Shown here piece after piece: positions 631-63,970 of a stretch of DNA of 64,000 nt. The stretch comes from a virus (Duplodnaviria > Caudoviricetes). The stretch lies in the IMG/VR virus record IMGVR_UViG_3300028628_000004, one strand, 5' to 3'. The notes beneath the pieces are model-generated. The model was not told where the DNA came from. It worked only from the letters and a program-made list of their open reading frames with translations, and searched no databases. Made by a program: the position numbers and the translations under genes. How positions within the stretch are numbered: position 1 is the stretch's first letter; the number at the start of each line of letters is the position of its first letter.

Positions 631-954
631 ATGAAACAAAAAGTTATAGTAGAGTGTGATCTACCTAAAGATTACTGTCTTAATAATGGATTTGCAACTA
701 CCCAGTTACCAGTTCTTCGTATGGGTGACTTTTATGCAATAACCAAAGAAAAGAAGCTCGTAAAAAAAATATTACAGGAAAATGGATTTTCTTTCGATGA
801 TATTCCGTCATCAGAATCAGTTGAATTTGACATAAAGCAAAACTTTACTACAGAGATGGGTCTTTGGGAGAGTAGATTTCATGTATCAGTCGTAAATGGA
901 GATGTCAATAACATTTACGAAGTCTCGACCAATTTGATACAAAAAGATTCTTGA
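631..954 (+). CDS. hypothetical protein
   Basis: ORF with GGAG SD. Confidence 0.6.
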   Translation: MKQKVIVECDLPKDYCLNNGFATTQLPVLRMGDFYAITKEKKLVKKILQENGFSFDDIPSSESVEFDIKQNFTTEMGLWESRFHVSVVNGDVNNIYEVSTNLIQKDS

Positions 955-983
955 CTTCTCTGGCACATCTATATGATGTAACC

Positions 984-2189
984 ATGTCACTACACGATTA
1001 CCTTTCTAAGTACTTCTCTTCTGGCTCCGTTGGAGAGTTTGAGGGAGTTTCTGTAAACCTTGTTGACCACTTCTTCGAGAAGTTTGGAGTCAACGTTAAG
1101 AACGAGGGCGACCTCTGGCAGTTTAAGTACGACCAGTTGGCAGCCAAGTTCTCGTTCCCGCTCGTCAAGGAGTGTCGTGGGCATATCTGGCGTTATGATG
1201 GGGCTTGGACTCGCGTATGTACGCCTCCCGACAAGTTCTTCAACCAGCATGAGGGATACTGCCCTATCTTCAACGATGATGAGTTTTCTCAGAAGCTTTC
1301 GGCGCTTTCGGCTATTCGCAAGGAAGACGGAACGGCTATTGCTGTCTGGTACGACTCCGTTCGTTCGGTTTGGCGTGCTTCAACGCTGGGCGCAATCACC
1401 CCCTTCAAGGTTGGTGATTACGAGATTACTTTCGATGCGTTGTTCTGGAAGACGCTGGGAGAAGAGAACAAGAACATCCTTGAGTCGCAGGGCGACAAGA
1501 ATGTTACCTACCTCTTTGAGCTTTGCTGCTTAGAGAACCGTATTGTCACCAAGTACATCACGGATCGTGTGTTCCTCTTGACGGCTCGTAACAACAAGAC
1601 GGGCGTCTATGAGACTCCATCGTGGTGGGATATCTTCAAGGCATACAAGCCTGACTTCTTCCTGCTCGCTGGGGAAGATAACATCAAGACGCTTGATGAC
1701 TTGAAGCGTTGGGTCGATAAGCAGTCGGATGACACGGCTGACGCTGTGTATCGTGAAGGCTTTGTGATTTACGATGGGCTTACCCCTATCGCTAAGTTGA
1801 AGACGGCTCGCTACTTGTCTCTCCACGCTGTTGGTGGAGGCGACATGAAGCACACGAGGAATGTAGTCATTGACTCGTTCTTCGCTGGAACGCTGGATGA
1901 CATTTGGGGCGTCTTGCACCCTCAGATGCAGGAGTTTGCCGAGAAGCTCAAGGATAAGGTCATTAAGTTGACCAACGAGGCGCTTGCGGCTTCCAAGAAC
2001 ATTGATCCTTCGACCATAGCTTCCCAGAAGGACTATGCGTTGTGGGTCAAGGCGAATGTTCCTCCGATGTTCGCTGGATTCTTCTTCCAGAACAAGGAAG
2101 CGGTTCTTGCCAAGAAGGGCATAACCGAGGACTTTACTTGGTGGGTGAAAGCCAACTACAAGAAGTTCGAGGGCGTCTGGAAGGACTGA
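984..2189 (+). CDS. T4 Rnl1-like ATP-dependent RNA ligase
   Basis: Ligase motifs ECRG, KFFN, KEDGT (I), LFE (III), EGFVI (IV), AKLK (V); ATG 984 preferred, 6 nt after TATGAT. Confidence 0.85.
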   Translation: MSLHDYLSKYFSSGSVGEFEGVSVNLVDHFFEKFGVNVKNEGDLWQFKYDQLAAKFSFPLVKECRGHIWRYDGAWTRVCTPPDKFFNQHEGYCPIFNDDEFSQKLSALSAIRKEDGTAIAVWYDSVRSVWRASTLGAITPFKVGDYEITFDALFWKTLGEENKNILESQGDKNVTYLFELCCLENRIVTKYITDRVFLLTARNNKTGVYETPSWWDIFKAYKPDFFLLAGEDNIKTLDDLKRWVDKQSDDTADAVYREGFVIYDGLTPIAKLKTARYLSLHAVGGGDMKHTRNVVIDSFFAGTLDDIWGVLHPQMQEFAEKLKDKVIKLTNEALAASKNIDPSTIASQKDYALWVKANVPPMFAGFFFQNKEAVLAKKGITEDFTWWVKANYKKFEGVWKD

Positions 2190-54353: not shown

Positions 54354-54440
54354 TGGGGTATACGACGGGATTCGAACCCGCATTGCGCTCAAGGCGCTCA
54401 GAGTCACAATCTGATGTCCTGCCGTTGGACCTCGTACACC
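54354..54440 (-). tRNA. tRNA-His(GTG), 8/4 fold with long variable arm
   Basis: G-1:C73, TCAGA-TTGTGAC-TCTGA, extra arm GCGCCTTGAGCGC, CCA. Confidence 0.8.
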
Positions 54441-54445
54441 ATGAA

Positions 54446-54521
54446 TGGGGTGGATAGCGATACTTGCAATCGCTTATGGAGATTCACAGTCTCCCAGTTT
54501 ACTATATAACCTATACCCACC
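54446..54521 (-). tRNA. tRNA-His(GTG)
   Basis: GGAGA-CTGTGAA-TCTCC, T-loop TGCAAGT, C73 CCA. Confidence 0.8.
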
Positions 54522-54531
54522 GTGCTTAGAA

Positions 54532-54906
54532 TGGTGGAGATGTGCGGTGCTGCCCCGCAGTCCAAAATCACTTTCATATTCCGTCTACAAGTTTAGAAGT
54601 TTAGACTTAAACTCCAAAGATGCTTCTTGTTGATCGTCCTGGCACGGGACTAGGATAATAACGCATATCCGCAACTCACAGTTGTCTTAATCTTGGGTAA
54701 CTGTCAGTTACATTGCCAAGAAGCAACCCCTATGTTACAGAGTTTCCAAGTCGAGATATCCTTGGGACTCTGGCAAGGAGCGATTAAGCTGCCATTGCGT
54801 ATTCAACTGAGTCATCAGTTATTTTTTTACATGTTTTTTAAGTGACCACATGTTCCACTACTTGCAAGAGATACTTCCACGATCCTGTCGAATCTGTGTC
54901 ATCCCC
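54532..54906 (-). ncRNA. ssrA: tmRNA, tag (A)DDSVEYAMAA
   Basis: GGGGATG...CATCTCCACCA with G3:U70, GATTCGAC, ATAACT then tag ORF 54816-54784. Confidence 0.93.
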
Positions 54907-54912
54907 ATAAAA

Positions 54913-54990
54913 TGGTGTGCATGAGAGGATTCGAACCTCCAACACTTACGCCCTCAACGTAATACCTCGTGCCAATTGGGTTACACGCAC
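54913..54990 (-). tRNA. tRNA-Leu(GAG), short variable loop
   Basis: TTACG-TTGAGGG-CGTAA, GTTCGAATC, CCA. Confidence 0.8.
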
Positions 54991-55820
54991 ATATTTTTTT
55001 CTAGCCAATAACCTCTAGGGAATTTTGGAATATCAATCCCTAGTTTTTTGCATCTTTTGCGTATTGCATTATCACTAACACCGAACATTTTAGCTACGCT
55101 GGTTAACGGCATTTCGTTTATATACTTCGTCAAATCACATGAAGAAACATCAAACTTTTTATTATTTTCACTAATTATAAATTCACCGCATTTTCTATTT
55201 TCATTGTAGCATTTTGCACAAACTCCTTTACTTTTTTTCGACACCACACACCCGCACATTTTACACTTTTTTTCGAAGCGTAACTTCTGGTCGTTTTCCT
55301 TTAATAAATTTTTTTGTTTAGTATTCTGAAGTTTTCCTTTATTACCCCATGTCAATGTTTGTGAATGACAGTTTGGGCATAGAAATCTAAGGTTGTTTAT
55401 TCTATTATCATTATGAATGCCGTTAATGTGGTCTACTTGCAATGTTATCTTTTCGCCCATCCACGTGTCGCCGTTATTGCATTTTTCGCATTTATATTCT
55501 CTTCCATTTTCCAATAGACGCTTACTAATCATATAACCACTTGCGGGGGTTGAATTTTCGCAGAAAAAATCTTCGTCTGATTTTCTTACTCTTATAGCCT
55601 GCATTTTTATTCTCATATCAGTCAAGGAGGTTTTCCCGCGTGACCAAGCAGACCCAGTAAAATGAGATATATCTATATTGAAGTATCTAATTAAACTCTT
55701 TATATGATTATGATTTCCACCACTATATGCCAAACCCAGATTTGCTAAAACATTTGATATTGAGGTTGATTTTTTCACAACTTCTTCTAGTATTTCCTTG
55801 GTGTACTTTCGATGTCTCAT
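54981..55820 (-). CDS. free-standing HNH homing endonuclease
   Basis: CEKC, LQVDHING...DNR..NLRFLCPNCHSQT, C-terminal HTH VSDNAIRKRC. Confidence 0.9.
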   Translation of the reverse strand: MRHRKYTKEILEEVVKKSTSISNVLANLGLAYSGGNHNHIKSLIRYFNIDISHFTGSAWSRGKTSLTDMRIKMQAIRVRKSDEDFFCENSTPASGYMISKRLLENGREYKCEKCNNGDTWMGEKITLQVDHINGIHNDNRINNLRFLCPNCHSQTLTWGNKGKLQNTKQKNLLKENDQKLRFEKKCKMCGCVVSKKSKGVCAKCYNENRKCGEFIISENNKKFDVSSCDLTKYINEMPLTSVAKMFGVSDNAIRKRCKKLGIDIPKFPRGYWLEKNMCV

Positions 55821-55883
55821 ACTGGCATCCTCCCTATATGTATTTATACACGAGGATGCCAGTAATACAAATAAAATATTAAC

Positions 55884-56330
55884 TTAAACAACTTGAGCGT
55901 TGACTGCTCTGATATCTGTTCCAGCTACTTCGGCTACTTCGGCAATCTTCTTGAGAGCCTGTAGTATATTCATAGCATTGTCAACTTTTGTCACCTTAGC
56001 ATAGATGCTTGCCATGTCACCACCGTCAGATAATGACTGTGACTCGACATTGGATACGAGCGATTCTATGCTGGACAATATGGTGGCAGGAGGCATTTTT
56101 CCACCATAGTCACCCAAGCCAAGCAAACTCTGAATCTTGCGGAATTTGCTCGTCTCAACAACAAACTTATAAGGCGAAGATCCGTTCATATTCCAATCTT
56201 CGAACATAACAACCATCATGCCAGTTGTTCTAATATCACTCTTTGGTGCCTTGGGAAACTCAAGAGGAATCTCTTCCTGTTTCTCCATAGCAATGTAAGT
56301 TTCTTTTAGCGACTCTAAGATGGTGTCCAT
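55884..56330 (-). CDS. hypothetical late protein
   Basis: TATAAATA and AAGGA upstream. Confidence 0.65.
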   Translation of the reverse strand: MDTILESLKETYIAMEKQEEIPLEFPKAPKSDIRTTGMMVVMFEDWNMNGSSPYKFVVETSKFRKIQSLLGLGDYGGKMPPATILSSIESLVSNVESQSLSDGGDMASIYAKVTKVDNAMNILQALKKIAEVAEVAGTDIRAVNAQVV

Positions 56331-56364
56331 ATGTATTCCTTATTATACCGAGTTATTTATAGAA

Positions 56365-56450
56365 TGGTAGGGGCGACAGGAATTGCACCTGCACGGGATT
56401 TCTCCCACAACGTTCTAAGCGTTGCATGGCTGCTGTTACATCACACCCCC
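56365..56450 (-). tRNA. tRNA-Leu(TAG)
   Basis: CAACG-CTTAGAA-CGTTG, long V-arm, CCA. Confidence 0.85.
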
Positions 56451-56460
56451 ATGATTTATT

Positions 56461-56550
56461 TGGCGGAAGATGAGGGATTCGAACCCCCGGTACCCGTTAA
56501 GGTACTTCAAGTTAGTAACTTGCTGCTATAGACCACTCAGCCAATCTTCC
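56461..56550 (-). tRNA. tRNA-Ser(ACT)
   Basis: Ser body, G73, long V-arm, CAAG-TTACTAA-CTTG. Confidence 0.8.
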
Positions 56551-56553
56551 GGA

Positions 56554-56633
56554 TGGTCCCACTGCTATATCGTCTTATGCTGCGAATCGCTGCGATATTG
56601 CTTAATGTCCAGTTCGCTCGTACACAGTTGGGA
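56554..56633 (-). ncRNA. CCA-ended non-cloverleaf small RNA
   Basis: TCCCAACTG/CAGTGGGA terminal helix then CCA. Confidence 0.45.
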
Positions 56634-56648
56634 TGATACGCTGGACGC

Positions 56649-56732
56649 TGGTAGGCAAGGTGGGACTCGAACCCACAAAACGACCGTGTTTGAGACGGCA
56701 AACTGTGCCATTCGTTATAACGTCACTTGCCC
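56649..56732 (-). tRNA. tRNA-Leu(CAA)
   Basis: GCCGT-CTCAAAC-ACGGT, GTTCGAGTC, CCA; enlarged D region. Confidence 0.75.
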
Positions 56733-56788
56733 ATGATCAATTTCGTTACTTTAGCGCAACGGAGTAAGAAATTGTAAGAAAGCCGTTT

Positions 56789-56922
56789 TGGTGTTGAGAG
56801 AAGGAGTTGCACCTTCACAATACAGATTTTCTGTTTCCGTATTTCCTTTTATTCATAGGAAGTCTACTACAGATGTTACCTCTTCATAGGCAATCATTCG
56901 TTTCATTTAGTCACTACTCAAC
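56789..56922 (-). ncRNA. tRNA-like RNA A (expanded D region, non-canonical anticodon loop)
   Basis: GTTGAG/CTCAAC-A-CCA, T-arm GAAGG-TGCAACT-CCTTC. Confidence 0.65.
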
Positions 56923-56928
56923 ATGAGA

Positions 56929-57055
56929 TGGTGCCCCGCCGCTGACACGCTCAGCTATTACGGAAGGTCTTTTACCTTTCTAACCCCTCAAATCCTTTCG
57001 GATGCTGGAGAGAAGTCTGCTGTCCCCTACGAGGACAGGTGAAGGTTGGCGGGGC
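56929..57055 (-). ncRNA. tRNA-like RNA C (8-bp acceptor, no anticodon loop)
   Basis: GCCCCGCC/GGCGGGGC-A-CCA, internal hairpins. Confidence 0.6.
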
Positions 57056-57078
57056 GAGTTGTTTATCCAGCTTTGATT

Positions 57079-57196
57079 TGGTGTTGAGGGTAGGACTTGC
57101 ACCTACATACTTGGATGCATGCTGGTCCAAGTTCCCTCTAAAACGAGGGTGCGTCTACTACGGGAATTGAACCCGCTCTTTCCGCCACTACTCAAC
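57079..57196 (-). ncRNA. tRNA-like RNA B, paralogue of A
   Basis: GTTGAGTAGTGGC...GTAGTAGAC...CTCAACACCA. Confidence 0.65.
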
Positions 57197-57197
57197 G

Positions 57198-57339
57198 TGG
57201 TGTCGATGGTAGGATTCGCACCTACACGCTCAAGCGTCCATGAGTTGTTTCCTTCTCATTTTTGCTAAGCCCCAGGTTTGGACCATGCTTTCGTTTAGGT
57301 CTTCAGCCCAGTCCGTCTGCTCGTTGCGGCACATACGAC
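57198..57339 (-). tRNA. tRNA-like gene with GAA (Phe) anticodon loop and ~70-nt variable region
   Basis: TGGG-CTGAAGA-CCTA, T-arm GTAGG-TGCGAAT-CCTAC, ACCA. Confidence 0.55.
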
Positions 57340-57348
57340 AAGAAAACA

Positions 57349-57465
57349 TAAGTATGCTCGGGAGTCGAACCCGACATCATTGGGGTGCATGCAGCCCCTC
57401 CACCGTGGATATGCATCTCTGCATACGGTAGGATTCGAACCTACTAGCGACCATCGACATACTTA
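57349..57465 (-). ncRNA. double T-arm RNA
   Basis: TAAGTATG/CATACTTA closing helix enclosing two TTCGA hairpins. Confidence 0.55.
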
Positions 57466-57468
57466 CTT

Positions 57469-57542
57469 TGGCACATGGGGAGAGAATCGAACTCCCATCT
57501 TTGGGTTTGGAATCCAAGGTACTACCATTGTACGACCCATGT
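57469..57542 (-). tRNA. tRNA-Trp(CCA)
   Basis: loop TTCCAAA, G73 CCA. Confidence 0.85.
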
Positions 57543-57550
57543 ATAAAATC

Positions 57551-57940
57551 TTTGTTGACCCATCCGGTGTGCTGTTACGCTAAAACGGTGGTTTGCTTTA
57601 CTATCTATTATACACCCACAATCACACATAATCCACTCGTGTGGACTTTGACGAGCAATAGATTGCTCTGCGTATGAAAGAGAGGCGGATTTCTTACGAA
57701 ACCAATCTTACTCGCCTCACTCGGTGGGAACCCCATACTTGGAGTTGATGTGACAAGTTACTCATACGCTGGCTACAAGTGGTTCTCGGTCTTCCTTTTT
57801 ATCGGCTGTCTTTATAGCTTGCTCTAAGGCTTGCTTTCAAGACTCCTTGTAGTAGTCGTATGCTTGCTCATTTCTATACAGCGCCCGTACTCTTTAAATG
57901 ATGGCTGCTTCTAAGCCGACATTTCGGTTCGGTCAACAAA
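57551..57940 (-). ncRNA. large ncRNA containing a split 23S rRNA H43-H44 (L11-binding) mimic
   Basis: 10-bp terminal helix TTTGTTGACC/GGTCAACAAA; ATGTCGGCTTAGAAGCAGCCATCATTTAAAGAGT ... GCGTAACAGCACACCGG. Confidence 0.8.
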
Positions 57941-58013
57941 ACTTGAGGTTTCTTAAAGTCGCTTATCCTCTTGCGACATGACAGTTTCAACTCCAACTCT
58001 GTCAAAGGGAAAA

Positions 58014-58112
58014 TGGTGCGGGCGACAGGATTTGAACCTGCGATTTCTTGCTCCCTGGCAGTTACTATTAGGTAACTAAAGCAAGCGGAATACCAGACTT
58101 TCCTACACCCAC
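58014..58112 (-). tRNA. tRNA-Pro(TGG) interrupted by 22-nt insert (58056-58077)
   Basis: CTTGC-TTT[AGTTACCTAATAGTAACTGCCA]GGGA-GCAAG. Confidence 0.75.
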
Positions 58113-58144
58113 ATCAGAAACTATTATATCACATAAAAAGAAAA

Positions 58145-58219
58145 TGGTCTGGGCGGTTGGAGTCGCACCAACTTCTTCTCCCTTCCAAAAGGAGCCGTCT
58201 ACTGTTGACCTACGCCCAG
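58145..58219 (-). tRNA. tRNA-Pro(TGG)
   Basis: C1:G72, CTCCT-TTTGGAA-GGGAG, CCA. Confidence 0.85.
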
Positions 58220-58220
58220 G

Positions 58221-58931
58221 TTATATTTCAATTCCAAGAATTTTACATCTTTTTCTTATTGCATTATCAGACACCCCGTATTTTACACCTATTTTAGTCA
58301 TAGGCATTTTGCTAACATCATCCATTAACTGCTCTTTACTAACTTCAAATTTACGGCGTTTCTTACAAGAACATTTTAGACATTTATTGTTTTTATTTTT
58401 TGTTGTTACACACCCACATTCGTCACAGTTATGTCTTTTTGCGTGATATTGTTTATTTTTACCAGAAAAAGTAGAAGTTTGAGAGTGGCAGTTTGGGCAT
58501 AAGAAACATAGATTTTCTATTCTGTTATCATTATGTATTCCATTCTTATGTTCTAATTGAAGAGTTATTATCTTACCCAACCATACTCCATTGTTCCCAC
58601 AGCAACTACACTCGTATTTTAGTAATCCTTCATTGACCAATCTTTTTTTAAGATAATGTCTAGCGTATGATGAATTCTGGGTTAATACCTGTGATAATGG
58701 TTTCTTCTTGGCGTTAAATTTTCTACCTTTATTGGAACCTACGCCGAGTGCTATATGTGAAATATCTACTTTTTCTTCGATGCATCTATTTTTAATTGTC
58801 TTGTAATTTCCTCCTTTATTTTCCATTCCGACATATTTTAGTATTTCGCTTATAGTGTTAGATGATGCTACTAATCTAGCGAATTCTTCTTTTGGTATTT
58901 TCCAAATTATGCTTCTCTTTTTTCTTGTCAT
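58221..58931 (-). CDS. free-standing HNH homing endonuclease, paralogue of 54981-55820
   Basis: LQLEHKNG...DNRIENLCFLCPNCHSQT, VSDNAIRKRC. Confidence 0.9.
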   Translation of the reverse strand: MTRKKRSIIWKIPKEEFARLVASSNTISEILKYVGMENKGGNYKTIKNRCIEEKVDISHIALGVGSNKGRKFNAKKKPLSQVLTQNSSYARHYLKKRLVNEGLLKYECSCCGNNGVWLGKIITLQLEHKNGIHNDNRIENLCFLCPNCHSQTSTFSGKNKQYHAKRHNCDECGCVTTKNKNNKCLKCSCKKRRKFEVSKEQLMDDVSKMPMTKIGVKYGVSDNAIRKRCKILGIEI

Positions 58932-58990
58932 ATATTCTCCTTATCGGTAGTATATTATACCATGTATTTATATATCCTACCGATAAAAAC

Positions 58991-59064
58991 TGGTTGGCTC
59001 ACTAGGTTCTGCCCCTAGACTAAAACGTTCAAAGCGTTGTATGCTGCTGTTACATCATGAGCCA
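58991..59064 (-). tRNA. tRNA-Gln(TTG)
   Basis: U1:A72, AACG-CTTTGAA-CGTT, CCA. Confidence 0.8.
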
Positions 59065-59071
59065 ATGATAG

Positions 59072-59188
59072 TTGGGAGTGAGGGATTCGAACCCCCACAG
59101 AGAGATCCTGGCGACTGTTTATGGACTTGAACCACATTGTTTCCTATAACAATCAAAGTCTCTCGTCCTACCATTAGACGAACCCCCA
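59072..59188 (-). tRNA. tRNA-Gln(TTG) interrupted by 46-nt insert (59109-59154)
   Basis: AGAGA-CTTT[GATTGTT...AACAGTCGCCA]GGA-TCTCT; no encoded terminal CCA. Confidence 0.75.
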
Positions 59189-59194
59189 ATGAAA

Positions 59195-59269
59195 TGGTTG
59201 GCACGGTAGGTGCTGCCCCTACTACGTCGGGTGTCAGAAACCCGCATTCTGCTGTTGAATTACGTGCCA
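59195..59269 (-). tRNA. tRNA-Gln(CTG)
   Basis: CGGGT-TTCTGAC-ACCCG, CCA. Confidence 0.85.
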
Positions 59270-59274
59270 GTAAC

Positions 59275-59712
59275 TTACTTCTTAATCGACTTAATCAACT
59301 TAGCAAACTTCCCAGGATTTACTGTGCATGCTTTTATGCCACCGAAGTAATCGGCAACATGGAAAGCAGCTACACATATCTCTGAGCATATCCACTTACT
59401 AGGATCTTCCTTTCTGAAGGGAAGAATCATGGAAAAGAAAATAGCTTTCCAGTCATATTTCTTATCTACTTGTGTCCAACAGAAAGCTTTAATCAACAAT
59501 TCTTTTTCTGGTGGAACATCAACTTCAACTATATCCCAATGCTGATGGAAGTACATCTTATATGTAAATTGTGTCTTAAAGGGAGAAGTGAGAGAAGTCC
59601 CAAATGAGGAACCGTCAGAAAATATAAGCTCGCAATGGGAATACTTTGAGAATGTCCAGAACTGGATGAGTCTGTCAAGTATTCCCGTTCCCTTTAAGAA
59701 TGCAACTTTCAT
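59275..59712 (-). CDS. permuted papain-like (YiiX/YaeF, NlpC/P60) protein
   Basis: YSHCEL, KYDW, WICSE motif order. Confidence 0.75.
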   Translation of the reverse strand: MKVAFLKGTGILDRLIQFWTFSKYSHCELIFSDGSSFGTSLTSPFKTQFTYKMYFHQHWDIVEVDVPPEKELLIKAFCWTQVDKKYDWKAIFFSMILPFRKEDPSKWICSEICVAAFHVADYFGGIKACTVNPGKFAKLIKSIKK

Positions 59713-59749
59713 AGAGCCTCCATAAGTATTTATCCTACGGAGTAAAAAA

Positions 59750-59824
59750 TGGTGCCTGCCCCCGGTAACGCTCCGGGTTTGTCCGCTCTTCAGGCGGGTG
59801 CTTTACTATTTAAGCTAGACAGGC
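59750..59824 (-). tRNA. tRNA-Phe(GAA)
   Basis: CCGC-CTGAAGA-GCGG, T-loop AGCGTTA, CCA. Confidence 0.8.
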
Positions 59825-59827
59825 ATA

Positions 59828-59898
59828 TGCAGGATAGAGGAATCGAACCTCTGACTCCGGCTTAACTGCCGGTGTGATAACCACTTCACCAATCCCGC
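59828..59898 (-). tRNA. tRNA-like gene with 6-nt anticodon loop, undetermined
   Basis: Full cloverleaf, CCGGC-AGTTAA-GCCGG, no CCA. Confidence 0.55.
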
Positions 59899-60088
59899 TA
59901 GGTTTTTGCAGAACCTTAACTGACTTTCTATCATTATAGTGGCGAAGATCATCCACTTTTAAGTAGCTTGGGGTACTACTTGTGTAGCATTCCGTAGCTA
60001 ACGGAGATGCCCTTTACCAACCCTCTATAATTATTGTGGCGGGGATCGTCCACAGTAAAGCAGCTTTGAGCGTCCTCATTGCCCTATC

Positions 60089-60160
60089 AAGTATCATTAC
60101 GGAATCGAACCGTTCCTCCCGCGTCATAAGCGGGTATGCATCCGTTACACCAAAGATACT
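60089..60160 (-). tRNA. tRNA-like gene with ATG anticodon (His codon box)
   Basis: CCCGC-TTATGAC-GCGGG, GTTCGATTC; imperfect acceptor, no CCA. Confidence 0.55.
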
Positions 60161-60174
60161 CTTAGCTTCAAACT

Positions 60175-60251
60175 TGGCGACTCCAGTGGGGTTTGAACCC
60201 ACGACCTATTGCGTGACAAGCAATTGCTCTCCCAGGCTGAGCTATGGAGCC
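60175..60251 (-). tRNA. tRNA-Asp(GTC)
   Basis: ATTGC-TTGTCAC-GCAAT, G73 CCA. Confidence 0.9.
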
Positions 60252-60255
60252 ATAA

Positions 60256-60330
60256 TGGCGGGTCTAGGGAGACTTGCGCTCCCCTTTTCGGATCGACAAT
60301 CCGATATGTCGCTATCTACATTTTAGACCC
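60256..60330 (-). tRNA. tRNA-Asp(GTC), variant elbow
   Basis: TCGGA-TTGTCGA-TCCGA, T-loop CGCAAGT, G73 CCA. Confidence 0.8.
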
Positions 60331-60447
60331 AAAAGACCACACCGTTTCTGCATTGTTAAGAGGCTGGTATGGTGCTACTGAACGACCACTCATGGTTGAG
60401 CATCTTAGAGAGGCTTGAGTGGGGCGGAGCCGTTTCATGCTCCTTAT

Positions 60448-60526
60448 TGGTGGGCAAGGTGGGAATCGAACCCGACCTCAACAACTTTATCAGAGTTGCA
60501 CTAGCATACCAGCTAGACTCTTGCCC
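60448..60526 (-). tRNA. tRNA-Ile(GAT)
   Basis: CAACT-CTGATAA-AGTTG, CCA. Confidence 0.8.
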
Positions 60527-60739
60527 AAAAATGTACCAACTTCACGCATCGGTCCATGAGCATTCAAATAAGGTTCTTCCATTGAAGGAAATGAATGATC
60601 TTATAGGAGACAGGGTGCTACCCTGGCTGAACAGCGGCGTTAAGGATCCCCTTCCGGGTCCAAGTGGATTTATTCTCCCCTCGACATGGAGATTTTGGTG
60701 GTGGATATATTTTAAGACCGCTACCGCCACACGGTCTGC

Positions 60740-60814
60740 TGGCACCCCAGGAAGGACTCGCACCTTTCATCTTCGGTTTCGTAGACCGACGTTCTTCTGT
60801 TATACTACCGGGGT
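60740..60814 (-). tRNA. tRNA-Arg(ACG)
   Basis: TCGGT-CTACGAA-ACCGA, CCA. Confidence 0.85.
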
Positions 60815-60821
60815 ATGAGAA

Positions 60822-60892
60822 TGGCAGGCAATCGTGGTGCTTACCCACGCTGATCTTCGTTCGAAGCGATGATTGCTCTCGGAGCATTGCCC
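60822..60892 (-). tRNA. degenerate tRNA-Arg(TCG)
   Basis: GGGCAAT/ATTGCCT-G-CCA, TCG-CTTCGAA-CGA; reduced D-arm, odd T-loop. Confidence 0.55.
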
Positions 60893-60904
60893 ATGAAAAA
60901 GATT

Positions 60905-61041
60905 GTAGCAAGACGGCTACATAAGCCGCATTCATCATCAAGATAACTACCCGTCCTGGGAACTTAATCGTGGGACTTCAACCCCCGTAGTTAGGCTCTT
61001 TATTTCCCCTTGATGTGTCTTTATGTTTAGACGATTGCTAC
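60905..61041 (-). ncRNA. unknown structured RNA
   Basis: Nested helices GTAGCAA/TTGCTAC, CATCAAG/CTTGATG, TAACTAC/GTAGTTA. Confidence 0.5.
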
Positions 61042-61042
61042 T

Positions 61043-61230
61043 TGGTGGGGGAGGTTGGATTCGAACCAACATGCCTCATCGGAACTTATCAGTTAAGTCC
61101 CACGCCTTACGCTCGTTGGGTAATTACTCCGTATGAGCATCGTGGGTTGAATTCTCTATTGTGAGTAACGTTATCTCTCACAGAAAATTCGTTTGTTCAA
61201 CGAGTCGCTTTGCCATTAGCGTACTCCCCC
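61043..61230 (-). ncRNA. tRNA scaffold with ~80-nt structured insertion replacing the anticodon loop
   Basis: GGGGGAG/CTCCCCC-A-CCA, normal D and T arms, CTCGTTG/CAACGAG stem. Confidence 0.7.
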
Positions 61231-61281
61231 AAAAGATGAAGGTTGCTTGCGTTAGTGGAAGCGAGCCTACAAACCTACGCA

Positions 61282-61355
61282 TGGTGGGCAATAAGGGAAT
61301 CAAACCCCTGTATTCTGAACGTCAATCAGATGTTCTATCATTGAACTAATCGCCC
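61282..61355 (-). tRNA. tRNA-Val(GAC)
   Basis: TCTGA-TTGACGT-TCAGA, CCA. Confidence 0.85.
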
Positions 61356-61484
61356 ATAAATCAAACTACGCTATAGAGTTGTTAAACGAAGCATTCGCTT
61401 CGTGGCTCTACTATAAGAGGTCTTCTGTGTAATACAATAGGAGCGACACACATACATCAGGAGTGTATCACACAGAAGCTTTGC

Positions 61485-61573
61485 TGGCGGAATCACACTG
61501 AATCGAACAGTCCAGACCTTCAAGCCTGGGGACGGCTTTCGAAACCGATTGAACACCTTGTTCCCGTGACTCC
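61485..61573 (-). tRNA. tRNA-Ser(CGA), 8/4 fold
   Basis: GGAGTCAC/GTGATTCC acceptor, 4-bp T-stem, loop TTCGAAA, long V-arm, G73. Confidence 0.8.
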
Positions 61574-61580
61574 AAAACTT

Positions 61581-61673
61581 TGGCGGATAGAGAGGGATTC
61601 GAACCCCCGGTGCCCGTTAAAAGGCACTTCGGTTTTCAAAACCGACGCAATCGACCTACTCTGCCATCTATCC
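61581..61673 (-). tRNA. tRNA-Ser(TGA)
   Basis: TCGGT-TTTGAAA-ACCGA, long V-arm, G73 CCA. Confidence 0.92.
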
Positions 61674-61677
61674 ATGC

Positions 61678-62064
61678 CTACATCCATAATCTACCTAATC
61701 TTTTTTCAAATAGCTTTTGAGCCTTTAAAAACATCTTTGCGTCCTCCGCACATAAAGATGGATATACTTGAGGTTTCTCTTTACTAGGAAGACGAGTAAC
61801 AGTGGAGAAGCCATCTATCATTGCCTTCAAGTCCCTGACAAGTTTCTTGTCTTGCTTATCATCTGGATGCATCTTATGAAGATACATCTTGAGACGAGGA
61901 ACTATCCAGCTACAAAAGGCAACATCCAAGTTTATTATTTCTTCGGCTCGGATTGCTTTGTTGCTCACGATATCATCAGCGAGTTTGAGAAGGCTCTCAT
62001 TTTTTTCTCTGAGCTTCTCGTTTTCTTCTTCGAGTTGCTTGATGTATATCTTTTCCTGTGTCAT
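61678..62064 (-). CDS. hypothetical protein
   Basis: TTGATA-16-TATAAT-6-ATG; N-terminal coiled coil. Confidence 0.7.
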   Translation of the reverse strand: MTQEKIYIKQLEEENEKLREKNESLLKLADDIVSNKAIRAEEIINLDVAFCSWIVPRLKMYLHKMHPDDKQDKKLVRDLKAMIDGFSTVTRLPSKEKPQVYPSLCAEDAKMFLKAQKLFEKRLGRLWM

Positions 62065-62098
62065 ACACCTATTATAACTATGGTATATGATATATCAA

Positions 62099-62188
62099 TG
62101 GTGGAGTAAGGAGTAATCGAAACTCTGCCCCCTTGCGGCGACCTTTCGCTTTCCAGGCGAACGCATCTCCCCGATGCTTCTCTACTCC
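62099..62188 (-). tRNA. tRNA-Ser(GGA), non-canonical fold
   Basis: TTCGC-CTGGAAA-GCGAA, long V-arm, CCA. Confidence 0.75.
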
Positions 62189-62194
62189 ATGAAA

Positions 62195-62476
62195 TTAACC
62201 GCCAAGTATCTTATCAAAATCAAACTTATCTTTGATAAACTTATGAAAAAACTGACCTTTACTTGGTGAAAATTTAAATTTATCTTTTAAGAATCTTGAT
62301 ATGTTGTTATAAGCATATACTACAGAAGGGTCGCCTTCAAACCTAATATACAATATTTTTTTCTTACGTGAATATCCAGATTGGATAATAGCAGTCGAAT
62401 CAACATTTGTTGGTGTTAAATTGGCTTCTTCAAGTTTCTTCCAAGTTTCTTGGAGATGTTTATGAATATTATCCAT
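62195..62476 (-). CDS. KTSC domain protein
   Basis: VDSTAI...GY....LYIRF....YAY.......SKGQFFHKFIK; start 62476 avoids overlapping tRNA-Thr. Confidence 0.8.
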   Translation of the reverse strand: MDNIHKHLQETWKKLEEANLTPTNVDSTAIIQSGYSRKKKILYIRFEGDPSVVYAYNNISRFLKDKFKFSPSKGQFFHKFIKDKFDFDKILGG

Positions 62477-62495
62477 GTATTCATATTTATAAAAT

Positions 62496-62569
62496 TGGTG
62501 CTGCTCCAAGGAATCGAACCTTGTTTCCCTACATACCAAGCAGGTGTAATACCAGTATACTAGAGCAGC
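62496..62569 (-). tRNA. tRNA-Thr(GGT)
   Basis: CCTGC-TTGGTAT-GTAGG, CCA. Confidence 0.88.
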
Positions 62570-62572
62570 ATA

Positions 62573-62715
62573 AGACCAGAGAAGAGATTGGGAGCAACAG
62601 TGTTTTTGCCGCTCTGCCGTTGAGCTACCTCACCGTTTGTGGTGAGGGTAGGATTCGAACCTACATCCTGCTCCTTATAATGGAAGTAACCGTCACAATG
62701 ACTACTTCTCTGGTT
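62573..62715 (-). ncRNA. YrlA-type Y RNA (permuted tRNA-like domain)
   Basis: Terminal helix ACCAGAGAAG/CTTCTCTGGT; T-arm precedes a loop-closed acceptor stem and then a D-arm TAGCTCAACGGCAGAGC. Confidence 0.75.
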
Positions 62716-62716
62716 T

Positions 62717-62807
62717 TGGTGGAAGGTGGGAGAATCGAACTCCATTCCCATTAAAGGGAACAATTTCTTTAGCAAAGAATTCCAGTACCACACTGGTTCT
62801 ACCTTCC
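62717..62807 (-). tRNA. tRNA-Ser(GCT), 8/4-like fold
   Basis: TTCT-TTGCTAA-AGAA, long V-arm, 4-bp T-stem, CCA. Confidence 0.8.
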
Positions 62808-62834
62808 ATAATCAAACTACGCTTATAATGTTGT

Positions 62835-62870
62835 AAAAAGAAAAACCCCGACTTTTTGAGTCAGGGTTTT
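62835..62870 (-). terminator. intrinsic terminator of putative attenuator
   Basis: AAAACCCTGACT-CAAAA-AGTCGGGGTTTTTCTTTTT. Confidence 0.85.
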
Positions 62871-62899
62871 CAGAGGGTGCCTATTTTTAGGTCTTTCTC

Positions 62900-63004
62900 T
62901 TACTTACCTGACTCCTGAGTAATAAAATCAGAGAGACGGCGACTCGACAACCATGATGGTTGGAGTTGCTGGACTGGCTGATGGGTGGGTAGGAGGTTAA
63001 TCAT
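62900..63004 (-). promoter_or_regulatory. putative leader peptide MINLLPTHQPVQQLQPSWLSSRRLSDFITQESGK
   Basis: 34-codon ORF 13 nt after TATAAATA (63025-63018), overlapping the antiterminator strand. Confidence 0.6.
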
Positions 63005-63106
63005 AATGTTCTATCTTTATTTATATGCGTATTCTAACATGTCCTGAGAAAAATACAATAAGTATTTTTACCATTGCGTAGTTTGTAATGTTTATAAGGA
63101 CTTACA

Positions 63107-63382
63107 TCAACTTTCCGAAAGGTCATCTTGAACTTCTTTACGAATAACTTCTTCGAGAAGACCATGCTCATCCTTCCACTTGGAAGCACAGCCAGGAATC
63201 TTATGCCCGTGGCATAACCCGCAGTCAGTACGACCACAGTCACAGGGATGCTTGACGGCAAGCCTATTTTTTTCATTTTCAAAATACTTAACTCGTTTCT
63301 TATCCGTTTCCTTCAAAAACTTTAAACGGTTGTCTGCAACTCGTTTCGTCTGTGATCTGCGCCATACTCGACTGCGTTTCAT
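63107..63382 (-). CDS. small basic Cys/His protein
   Basis: AAGGAG SD; HPCDCGRTDCGLCH. Confidence 0.7.
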   Translation of the reverse strand: MKRSRVWRRSQTKRVADNRLKFLKETDKKRVKYFENEKNRLAVKHPCDCGRTDCGLCHGHKIPGCASKWKDEHGLLEEVIRKEVQDDLSES

Positions 63383-63406
63383 GTAATTCTCCTTGTTAAT
63401 AAAGCT

Positions 63407-63481
63407 TGGTGCTACTTGAGAGATTTGAACTCCCGACCTTCTGTTTACAAAACAGATACACTACCACTGTGTTAAAGTAGC
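63407..63481 (-). tRNA. tRNA-Thr(TGT)
   Basis: TCTGT-TTTGTAA-ACAGA, CCA. Confidence 0.9.
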
Positions 63482-63485
63482 ATAA

Positions 63486-63560
63486 TGGTGCCCCCACCAC
63501 GACTCTCACATGGCTTTCCGGAGTACAAAACCGGTGTGTCGATATCTACACTTTAGGGGC
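63486..63560 (-). tRNA. tRNA-Thr(TGT), variant elbow
   Basis: CCGG stem, loop TTTGTAC, T-loop TGAGAGT, CCA. Confidence 0.78.
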
Positions 63561-63592: not shown

Positions 63593-63970
63593 TTACTTCA
63601 AAAGCGACAGCTTACCGAAAATAGCTTTGGACACTTCGTTGTCGATGGGTTCAAAAGCAGTTGCGGTTTCTGCGTTAGACATATCGGGTTCTATGAAGGT
63701 GGTGTATGATAACTCCATTCTGTCATAGAGTGCCTTTATGCTTGCAATTTCGTTATCCGTTGCGGAGAGAAGAATCATTGTCTTGTGGTTGTTCACCCAA
63801 TCAATGACTTTGGGCTTCTGTCCGTGTTGTGCCATAAACTCGGCAGCCGCGTGGCTACTCTGTACAGCACAATGAGTTAACGGAAGTATATCTCGTCTGA
63901 TGAGGATGAACATCTTAAGCATTTTGCTATATACCTCCGGTGCCACAGGCACACTCGGGTATGAGAGCAT
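63593..63970 (-). CDS. PTH2-like peptidyl-tRNA hydrolase
   Basis: MFILIRRD, AVQSSHA, W....KT.ILL, F.EPD....TA.A, L.LL; alternative start 63922 with GGAGGT SD. Confidence 0.75.
   Translation of the reverse strand: MLSYPSVPVAPEVYSKMLKMFILIRRDILPLTHCAVQSSHAAAEFMAQHGQKPKVIDWVNNHKTMILLSATDNEIASIKALYDRMELSYTTFIEPDMSNAETATAFEPIDNEVSKAIFGKLSLLK

Follow-up and report, generated by a model that had tools for sequence, protein, structure and literature searches.

Introduction

The elbow of transfer RNA (tRNA) is built on two contacts that join D-loop and T-loop, G18-pseudouridine 55 and G19-C56, which are near universal, and G18 and U55 themselves are taught as universal. In the canonical T-loop, U54-U55-C56-R57-A58, the base of G18 slides between positions 57 and 58 and touches U55, and TrmA, TruB and TrmH act on the residues U54, U55 and G18, which are the sites of 5-methyluridine (m5U), pseudouridine and 2'-O-methylguanosine (Gm), respectively. 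Current tRNA finders, modification maps and structural models all assume G18 and U55. Here we describe a tRNA array in a 64,000-nucleotide (nt) stretch of the virus record IMGVR_UViG_3300028628_000004 (hereafter the window), in which nine tRNAs and a transfer-messenger RNA (tmRNA) combine A18 with G55. The array, about 29 tRNA or tRNA-like genes plus the tmRNA gene, occupies 9.2 kb of the minus strand (54354-63560).

Several described systems come close to what is seen in this array. The T-loops of the flavin mononucleotide (FMN) and cobalamin riboswitches follow the consensus (YGNRA)NY, and the base that intercalates between positions 4 and 5 nearly always belongs to an adenosine, which contacts the sugar edge of the position-2 G through two hydrogen bonds; tRNA departs from this pattern with U at T-loop position 2, and a ribosomal RNA (rRNA) T-loop of sequence GGAAG exists (bioRxiv 10.1101/2022.12.26.521914). 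At the outer side of the tRNA elbow, the face of the G19:C56 pair provides a flat surface on which RNase P and the ribosome stack (PMC4810234). Natural tRNAs can dispense with the canonical nucleotides, as tRNA-Pyl and animal mitochondrial tRNAs are functional without G18G19 and T-pseudouridine-C (PMC7609411). Phage tRNAs that evade anticodon nucleases are described as doing so by anticodon-loop changes or overexpression, and the T-loop, the D-loop and the elbow are unmentioned in these reports (eLife 2023 PMC10264068; Nat Commun 2024 PMC11555353). For dense gene clusters, the definition of a tRNA array unit asks for at least 20 tRNA genes at a density of at least 2 per kb (PMC4758250). Our search of the open-access literature (PubMed Central and bioRxiv, including reviews of the elbow, of non-canonical tRNAs and of L-arrays), in which older subscription papers could be missed, found no description of A18/G55 tRNAs.

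Results

A18 and G55 occur together in nine tRNAs and in the tmRNA

Every candidate tRNA was split into cloverleaf segments before positions 18 and 55 were read; the D-loop base that complements 56 was numbered 19 and its predecessor 18. By this parsing G55 is found in nine tRNAs, each of which has A18, and all tRNAs with T55 carry G18; none of the nine possesses the G18 and U55 conserved in the Rfam tRNA family RF00005. The outer pair is G19:C56 in eight of the nine and T:A in the ninth, Thr-TGT. The preliminary description of this DNA had listed the D-loop and T-loop strings in pairs and had noted the co-varying 19:56 pairs of Thr (T:A) and Val (A19:T56), and every one of these could be located in the sequence at its place. 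To guard against circularity, tRNAs were also collected with a loop-blind finder, which scores candidates by stem pairing and U33 whatever the sequence of their D- and T-loops (cut-off at least 19 of 21 pairs, at which shuffled windows yield 0-5 matches). This returned 17 tRNAs on the minus strand, each with a CCA end, including eight of the nine variants: 8 are A18/G55, 9 are G18/T55 and none is discordant (Fisher p = 4.1e-5), and no random re-pairing of the loops out of 5000 was as extreme as the observed 8/9 split. The earlier claim that G55 goes with A18 therefore holds for the nine tRNAs and, as described below, for the tmRNA. Over 53 structural positions the mean identity is 0.40 among variants, 0.44 among canonical tRNAs and 0.39 +/- 0.09 over all pairs; because the mutual identity of the variants is close to that of all pairs, they are no recent burst of paralogs.

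A different gene family in the same array, the tmRNA, carries the same paired change. It matches the tmRNA family over its full length, retains G3:U70 and has an intact tag frame ending in ...YAMAA before the stop. Its tRNA-like domain reads AG at the site of the family's consensus GG, together with the T-loop GGCAGCA, so that the variant elbow ascribed to it earlier is read in the sequence just as in the variant tRNAs. A pattern search of viral contigs for further variant-elbow tmRNAs gave none, and SmpB was not found in the sequenced 44% of the phage genome.

The paired change recurs in other viruses and in bacteria

A first seed pattern representing one variant design (D-loop AACAGCA with T-loop GGCAGMA) matched at least 117 viral contigs of the IMG/VR database, mostly by chance, with several of the matches lying within tRNA arrays. 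The loop-blind finder was run on all 131 loci and the tRNAs that had seeded the search were removed, after which the IMG/VR loci hold 42 A18/G55 and 59 G18/T55 tRNAs, 7 others and not a single A18/T55 or G18/G55 case; where the 19:56 pair is other than G:C, it is Watson-Crick in 7/7. One viral contig (L078) encodes 25 tRNAs with differing anticodons, 25/25 of them variant, and most other arrays mix variant and canonical designs with anticodons that are mostly not duplicated. The three T-loop subtypes of the window recur in unrelated contigs, with 54:58 being T:A or C:A and base 60 mostly T in the first, G:G with A60 in the second, and A:T with A60 in the third.

A second pattern of 23 bases, for which we estimate fewer than 0.1 chance matches, was found in 47 bacterial genomes, mostly Verrucomicrobiota, among them the cultured strains Chthoniobacter flavus Ellin428 and Brevifollis gellanilyticus. 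Chromosomal arrays of 15-26 genes in Verrucomicrobiota are almost wholly variant (bacterial loci, 433/481 cloverleaves), and bacteria of the candidate phyla radiation (CPR) have a conserved variant tRNA-His among canonical tRNAs. When the variant arrays were compared with cultured phages by blastn, no variant array was returned, the matches being ordinary tRNAs, unannotated stretches of Caulobacter phages and homing endonucleases, and blastn of a Verrucomicrobia array against plasmids gave no match.

Pooling viral contigs and bacterial genomes gave 576 unique cloverleaves, and in this larger alignment the association at 18/55 becomes stronger, with 388 A18/G55 and 130 G18/T55 tRNAs against 2 A18/T55 and 11 G18/G55 single changes. 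Clustering at 70% identity leaves 86 A18/G55 and 75 G18/T55 clusters, and within families of at least 80% identity GG/TTC and AG/TGC versions alternate (e.g., Met-CAT, His, Leu-CAG). Because the association survives clustering and the versions swap inside close families, the alignments indicate that the coupling reflects repeated paired change and not shared ancestry. Such a pattern already contradicts the view that the variants are decaying pseudogenes whose loops changed by mutational accident. This view could draw on their Rfam scores (38-49 bits), which lie below those of most canonical neighbours, and on the two genes that go undetected, yet the stems are paired, the CCA is kept, shuffled loop pairings never reproduce the association, and positions 18 and 55 switch jointly across hundreds of unrelated tRNAs, single changes being almost absent; we consider it highly improbable.

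The exchange at the elbow may belong to a more extensive rearrangement of the tRNA core. In the pooled set A8 is present in 21% of variants versus 8% of canonical tRNAs (in the window, in the Thr and Asp variants), and a purine at 48 in 41% versus 18%, the 15:48 pair often being purine-purine.

The variants have the features of working tRNAs

All nine variants have 7/7 acceptor pairs, with 3-4 of 4 pairs in the D stem, 4-5 of 5 in the anticodon stem and 4-5 of 5 in the T stem. The anticodon loop measures 7 nt in all nine and contains U33 and a purine at 37, and CCA is encoded in every case. Identity elements were read directly in the sequences and compared with the Escherichia coli identity-element lists, which served as the reference for the matching anticodon; the elements agree with the anticodon in the His, Arg, Pro, Gln, Thr and Leu variants (Table 1). 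Since stems, encoded CCA and synthetase identity elements are all intact, the variants most likely function as tRNAs. Parsing of 17 genes of the Anabaena trn operon revealed one variant, Ile-GAU, with T-loop GGCAGTA and D-loop AAAAGTG; 23/26 of the operonic tRNAs were detected and charged in vivo, and an aminoacylated band is reported for Ile-GAU (PMC8421152).

These observations bear on the possibility that the variants are decoys or regulators, tRNA-like molecules that do not decode and, for instance, soak up host nucleases or synthetases. The same region does hold non-decoding tRNA-like RNAs (three long CCA-ended ones and a permuted one), and phage T5 likewise encodes stable RNAs that resemble tRNA. 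A decoy role is nonetheless improbable in view of the standard 7-nt anticodon loops, sensible anticodons and matching identity elements, the existence of complete variant sets of 15-26 genes whose anticodons differ, the variant tRNA-His among canonical genes of CPR bacteria and the reported in vivo charging of the Anabaena variant Ile-GAU (PMC8421152). The all-variant arrays and the CPR tRNA-His argue for use in decoding. As the same swap recurs in hundreds of phage and bacterial-array tRNAs, A18/G55 looks like a working alternative tRNA design.

Standard tools under-call this class and thus overlook part of the tRNA sets of phages. ARAGORN misses four of the nine variants and the tmRNA (Table 1), and RF00005 misses two of nine, both Gln genes going unreported even at E up to 1; the other seven variants score 38.3-48.9 bits against a gathering threshold of 29 bits.

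A general T-loop could account for the variant elbow

In order to rationalise the A18/G55 pairing on the structural level, we compared the variant T-loops with those found outside tRNA. Six of the nine (TGCAAGT, TGCAATT, TGCGACT, TGCGAGT, TGAGAGT and CGCAAGT) fit (YGNRA)NY and three fall outside it (GGCAGMA twice and AGCGTTA); these two rarer subtypes, with 54:58 as G:G or A:T, obey the same A18/G55 rule. The comparison suggests that the variants use the general T-loop, Y-G-N-R-A followed by two bulged bases, in which A18 would be the intercalating adenosine supplied by the partner loop and G55 the position-2 G to which it is bonded; the three-dimensional geometry is in this sense a prediction from sequence. 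The outer G19:C56 pair is kept or co-varies, and the L-shape and its readers should therefore be unaffected. A closed GNRA tetraloop formed by G55-N-R-A58, with 54 paired with 59, was considered and set aside, because 19:56 co-varies and (YGNRA)NY is the consensus of true T-loops.

Several observations weigh against reading the variants as such an alternative design. The A18/G55 rule is dominant, not absolute: among the 435 pooled G55 tRNAs 89% have A at 18, and about 11% have another or an unassignable base there; an exception lineage in Verrucomicrobiota combines a CGAAA T-loop (G55) with G18 and T19:A56. Since the variant motif itself served to collect the external loci, their counts give no measure of prevalence. 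Within the array, the D and T stems of the Arg-ACG variant are imperfect, and the minimum-energy fold is the full cloverleaf in just six of the nine variants, a proportion similar to that of the canonical genes. The compensated, functional elbows proposed in the preliminary description are nevertheless well supported by the comparative evidence, namely paired switches, Watson-Crick 19:56 pairs, the YGNRA match and intact stems, CCA and identity elements. Overall, we put the probability that these are working phage tRNAs and a working tmRNA, with an elbow built on a different version of the T-loop motif, at roughly 80%.

Variant genes adjoin canonical genes of the same anticodon

For Thr, Asp, His, Pro and Gln-TTG the variant gene lies next to a canonical gene of the same anticodon, and five such adjacent pairs among 29 genes arose in 1/200,000 random gene orders. 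The variant is the upstream member in four of the five pairs, and in the Thr, Asp and His pairs and the Gln cluster just 4-6 nt separate the variant's CCA from the gene that follows. The twins agree at 43-47% of the 53 structural positions and so did not arise by recent duplication. In the Gln-TTG and Pro pairs the variant is the one uninterrupted gene. The earlier notion of a second set beside canonical twins thus stands for this phage, with its five pairs, and fails as a general rule: other arrays mostly have complementary, not duplicated, anticodons, which makes the twin layout a peculiarity of this phage.

Among the canonical-elbow genes we also observed a third interrupted tRNA, with an insert of about 115 nt in the anticodon arm, and the 46-nt and 22-nt inserts of the Gln and Pro genes both end in GCCA. 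The canonical His gene has a long, stem-forming variable arm and the Leu(GAG) gene a variable region of just 5 nt, the reverse of the usual class for each.

The array belongs to a large tailed phage

The virus record measures 101.6 kb with 42.6% G+C and a CheckV completeness estimate of 44%. Baseplate and tail protein genes, an Rnl1-like RNA ligase, HNH endonucleases and a Pth2 hydrolase are among its genes, a content that marks it as a large tailed phage; the RNA ligase and Pth2 together show an investment in tRNA repair and recycling. At about 29 genes in 9.2 kb the array exceeds the minimum size and density of an L-array, or tRNA array unit, and the associated homing endonucleases of such units are represented by two HNH genes within it. 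The array had no megablast match among cultured phages, and protein-seeded searches for relatives of the phage reached distant loci at no more than 38% identity, or none.

Table 1. Features of the window. The suffix _v marks a variant elbow (A18/G55); paired strings give D-loop / T-loop.
Feature	Position	Strand	D-loop / T-loop	Details
Rnl1-like RNA ligase	951-2189	+		phrog_562, E 2e-39
His(GTG), canonical elbow	54357-54439	-		directly after His_v; G-1, C73; unusually long variable arm
His_v (GTG)	54449-54520	-	ATATAGTA / TGCAAGT	G-1 encoded, with C73
tmRNA	54532-54906	-	AG / GGCAGCA	RF00023, 108.7 bits (threshold 47), model positions 1-374; missed by ARAGORN
Leu(GAG)	54916-54990	-		short variable region
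HNH endonuclease	54981-55820			inside array; phrog_10822, E 7e-59
Leu-TAG_v	56368-56450	-	AACAGCAG / TGCAATT	long variable arm, A73
Long tRNA-like RNA	56789-56922	-		134 nt, CCA end
Long tRNA-like RNA	57079-57196	-		118 nt, CCA end
Long tRNA-like RNA	57198-57458	-		261 nt, CCA end; two internal TTCGAxT hairpins
23S rRNA match	57881-57922	-		bacterial 23S rRNA 1098-1143, 23 bits, E 9e-4
"Pro", canonical elbow	58017-58112	-		22-nt insert in anticodon loop; Pro(TGG) once insert removed (by eye)
Pro_v (TGG)	58148-58219	-	AACAGTA / TGCGACT	C1:G72, A73
HNH endonuclease	58221-58931			inside array; phrog_10822, E 8e-47
Gln-TTG_v	58994-59064	-	AACAGCA / GGCAGAA	U1:A72, G2:C71, G3:C70; missed by ARAGORN and Rfam
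Gln(TTG), canonical elbow	59072-59188	-		46-nt insert in anticodon loop
Gln-CTG_v	59198-59269	-	AACAGCA / GGCAGCA	54:58 = G:G; U1:A72, G2:C71, G3:C70; missed by ARAGORN and RF00005
Phe_v (GAA)	59753-59824	-	AAATAGTA / AGCGTTA	54:58 = A:T
tRNA with 6-nt anticodon loop	59828-59898	-		55 bits; loop AGTTAA
Asp(GTC), canonical twin	60178-60251	-		4 nt past CCA of Asp_v
Asp_v (GTC)	60259-60330	-	AGATAGCG / CGCAAGT	C54, A8; missed by ARAGORN
abiF RNA motif	60385-60422	-		41.6 bits (gathering 37)
Arg-ACG_v	60743-60814	-	AACAGAA / TGCGAGT	A20 kept; D stem 3/4, T stem 4/5 pairs
Interrupted tRNA, canonical elbow	61046-61230	-		insert in anticodon arm
Val-GAC	61285-61355	-		G18/T55 retained; 19:56 = A:T (A19, T56)
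Permuted tRNA-like element	62608-62671	-		YrlA match, 32 bits, below gathering score
Thr(TGT), canonical twin	63410-63481	-	GG / TTCAAAT	4 nt past CCA of Thr-TGT_v
Thr-TGT_v	63489-63560	-	AGATATCG / TGAGAGT	A18, T19:A56, G55; A8; G1:C72, C2:G71; CCA encoded; Rfam 38.3 bits; missed by ARAGORN
Pth2 peptidyl-tRNA hydrolase	63593-63970	-		Pfam, E 1e-8

Other RNA elements accompany the tRNA genes. The three long CCA-ended tRNA-like RNAs pair their ends in an acceptor-like stem and bear variant-type loops in the 3' T arm, TGCGAAT in the 261-nt, TGCAAGT in the 118-nt and TGCAACT in the 134-nt RNA; the tRNA-like stable RNAs of T5 lie in the same context. For the tRNA with the 6-nt anticodon loop ARAGORN gives a two-base anticodon. 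In the permuted element the T arm and 3' acceptor strand come first, followed by the 5' acceptor strand and D arm, and its match to YrlA (Y RNA-like) is weak. The abiF motif is placed between tRNA-Ile and the Asp pair, and the short 23S rRNA match falls in a non-coding stretch of the array.

Discussion

If the A18/G55 elbow works, the question arises why phages and bacterial arrays should use it. The toxin CdiA-CT E479 cleaves tRNA inside the T-loop, its cut falling between the conserved T and pseudouridine (PMC9086364), and escape from T-loop-reading nucleases or independence from modification, as the preliminary description proposed, is plausible. Our best guess is that the swap removes the U54, U55 and G18 read by host modification enzymes and T-loop-directed nucleases; an accessory tRNA set would thereby gain robustness and could move from host to host, and a variant placed beside a canonical gene of the same anticodon would hedge between two designs. 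We rank robustness to, or independence from, the readers of the canonical elbow as the most likely reason for the swap, with a neutral origin as a serious rival. A bolder version would have A18/G55 as an orthogonal chassis deployed on purpose by mobile elements, invisible to readers of the T- and D-loops and folding without host modification, with twins and tmRNA securing translation and ribosome rescue should the host attack either design or fail to mature it; this we regard as rather unlikely. Three points count against any advantage. The tRNA sets of T5 and of Caulobacter phage CcrRogue have canonical elbows throughout, an all-against-all comparison of open reading frames revealed no protein family common to 17 variant-bearing loci and this genome, and we know of no defence nuclease that reads U55 or G18 during phage infection.

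The neutral alternative holds that A18/G55 is equally good and brings no benefit of its own, that selection by modification enzymes on accessory genes is weak, and that the design spreads with arrays and homing endonucleases. The mixture of variant and canonical tRNAs in most arrays, the switches in both directions inside close tRNA families, the lack of a gene linked to variant arrays among the loci compared and the HNH endonucleases in this array, in T5 and beside the Anabaena operon are all in its favour. It has more difficulty with the bacterial loci, where most variants belong to long tRNA arrays; housekeeping tRNAs hardly vary at U55 and G18, and this difference suggests that the two contexts select differently. 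The tmRNA has changed too, and the side-by-side twins are far from random and not predicted by pure drift. On balance the neutral account is possible, if doubtful.

Two further candidates were considered. The known "unusual tRNAs" of T5 were rejected as members of this class, the T5 set being canonical, and hosts that natively use such tRNAs were set aside except for the CPR tRNA-His, as they leave the mixed-design arrays unexplained.

A large natural class of tRNAs with a second, internally consistent elbow would mean that the tRNA corner can be built by the general T-loop solution, and the variants would constitute a natural experiment on the purpose of pseudouridine 55, m5U54 and Gm18. Should the swap indeed protect from host enzymes, it would add a new layer to the contest between phage and host over tRNA and offer a ready-made scaffold for orthogonal tRNAs.

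Compared with the canonical elbow, as in the T5 set, the variants share the cloverleaf, stem lengths, 7-nt loops, encoded CCA and identity elements, as well as G19:C56, a purine at 57 and G53:C61, and the T5 array is likewise laid out with HNH endonucleases. They differ in having A18 and G55 and in lacking U54, U55 and G18, their 54:58 combination may be C:A, G:G or A:T, and T5 has no such tRNA. With the YGNRA T-loops of riboswitches, introns and rRNA they have in common the 7-nt consensus (six of nine variants) and the partner adenosine, the GGCAG subtype recalling the rRNA GGAAG; the setting here is instead a tRNA or tmRNA elbow whose third T-loop base keeps its place in the 19:56 pair, a D-loop acts as receptor in place of the T-loop receptor of a riboswitch, and for the A:T subtype (AGCGT) we found no precedent among T-loops. 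Phage tRNAs that evade anticodon nucleases are also phage-encoded and differ from the host at conserved positions, and this phage has an Rnl1-like ligase; the change there is in the anticodon loop and here in the elbow, where no nuclease is known to be evaded. tRNA-Pyl and mitochondrial tRNAs are likewise natural functional tRNAs without the canonical elbow nucleotides, but their D-loops are shrunken and their contacts weak or different, whereas the variants have normal loops, the specific A18/G55 combination and a conserved G19:C56. The dense, endonuclease-associated layout is that of L-arrays such as the Anabaena trn operon, and the Verrucomicrobiota arrays add to this an almost wholly variant-elbow content; the Anabaena L-array differs in its single variant among the 17 genes parsed, and the elbow is not discussed in its description (PMC8421152). 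What is new in the present array is the side-by-side arrangement of same-anticodon twins, the variant-elbow tmRNA and the presence of all three T-loop subtypes in one array.

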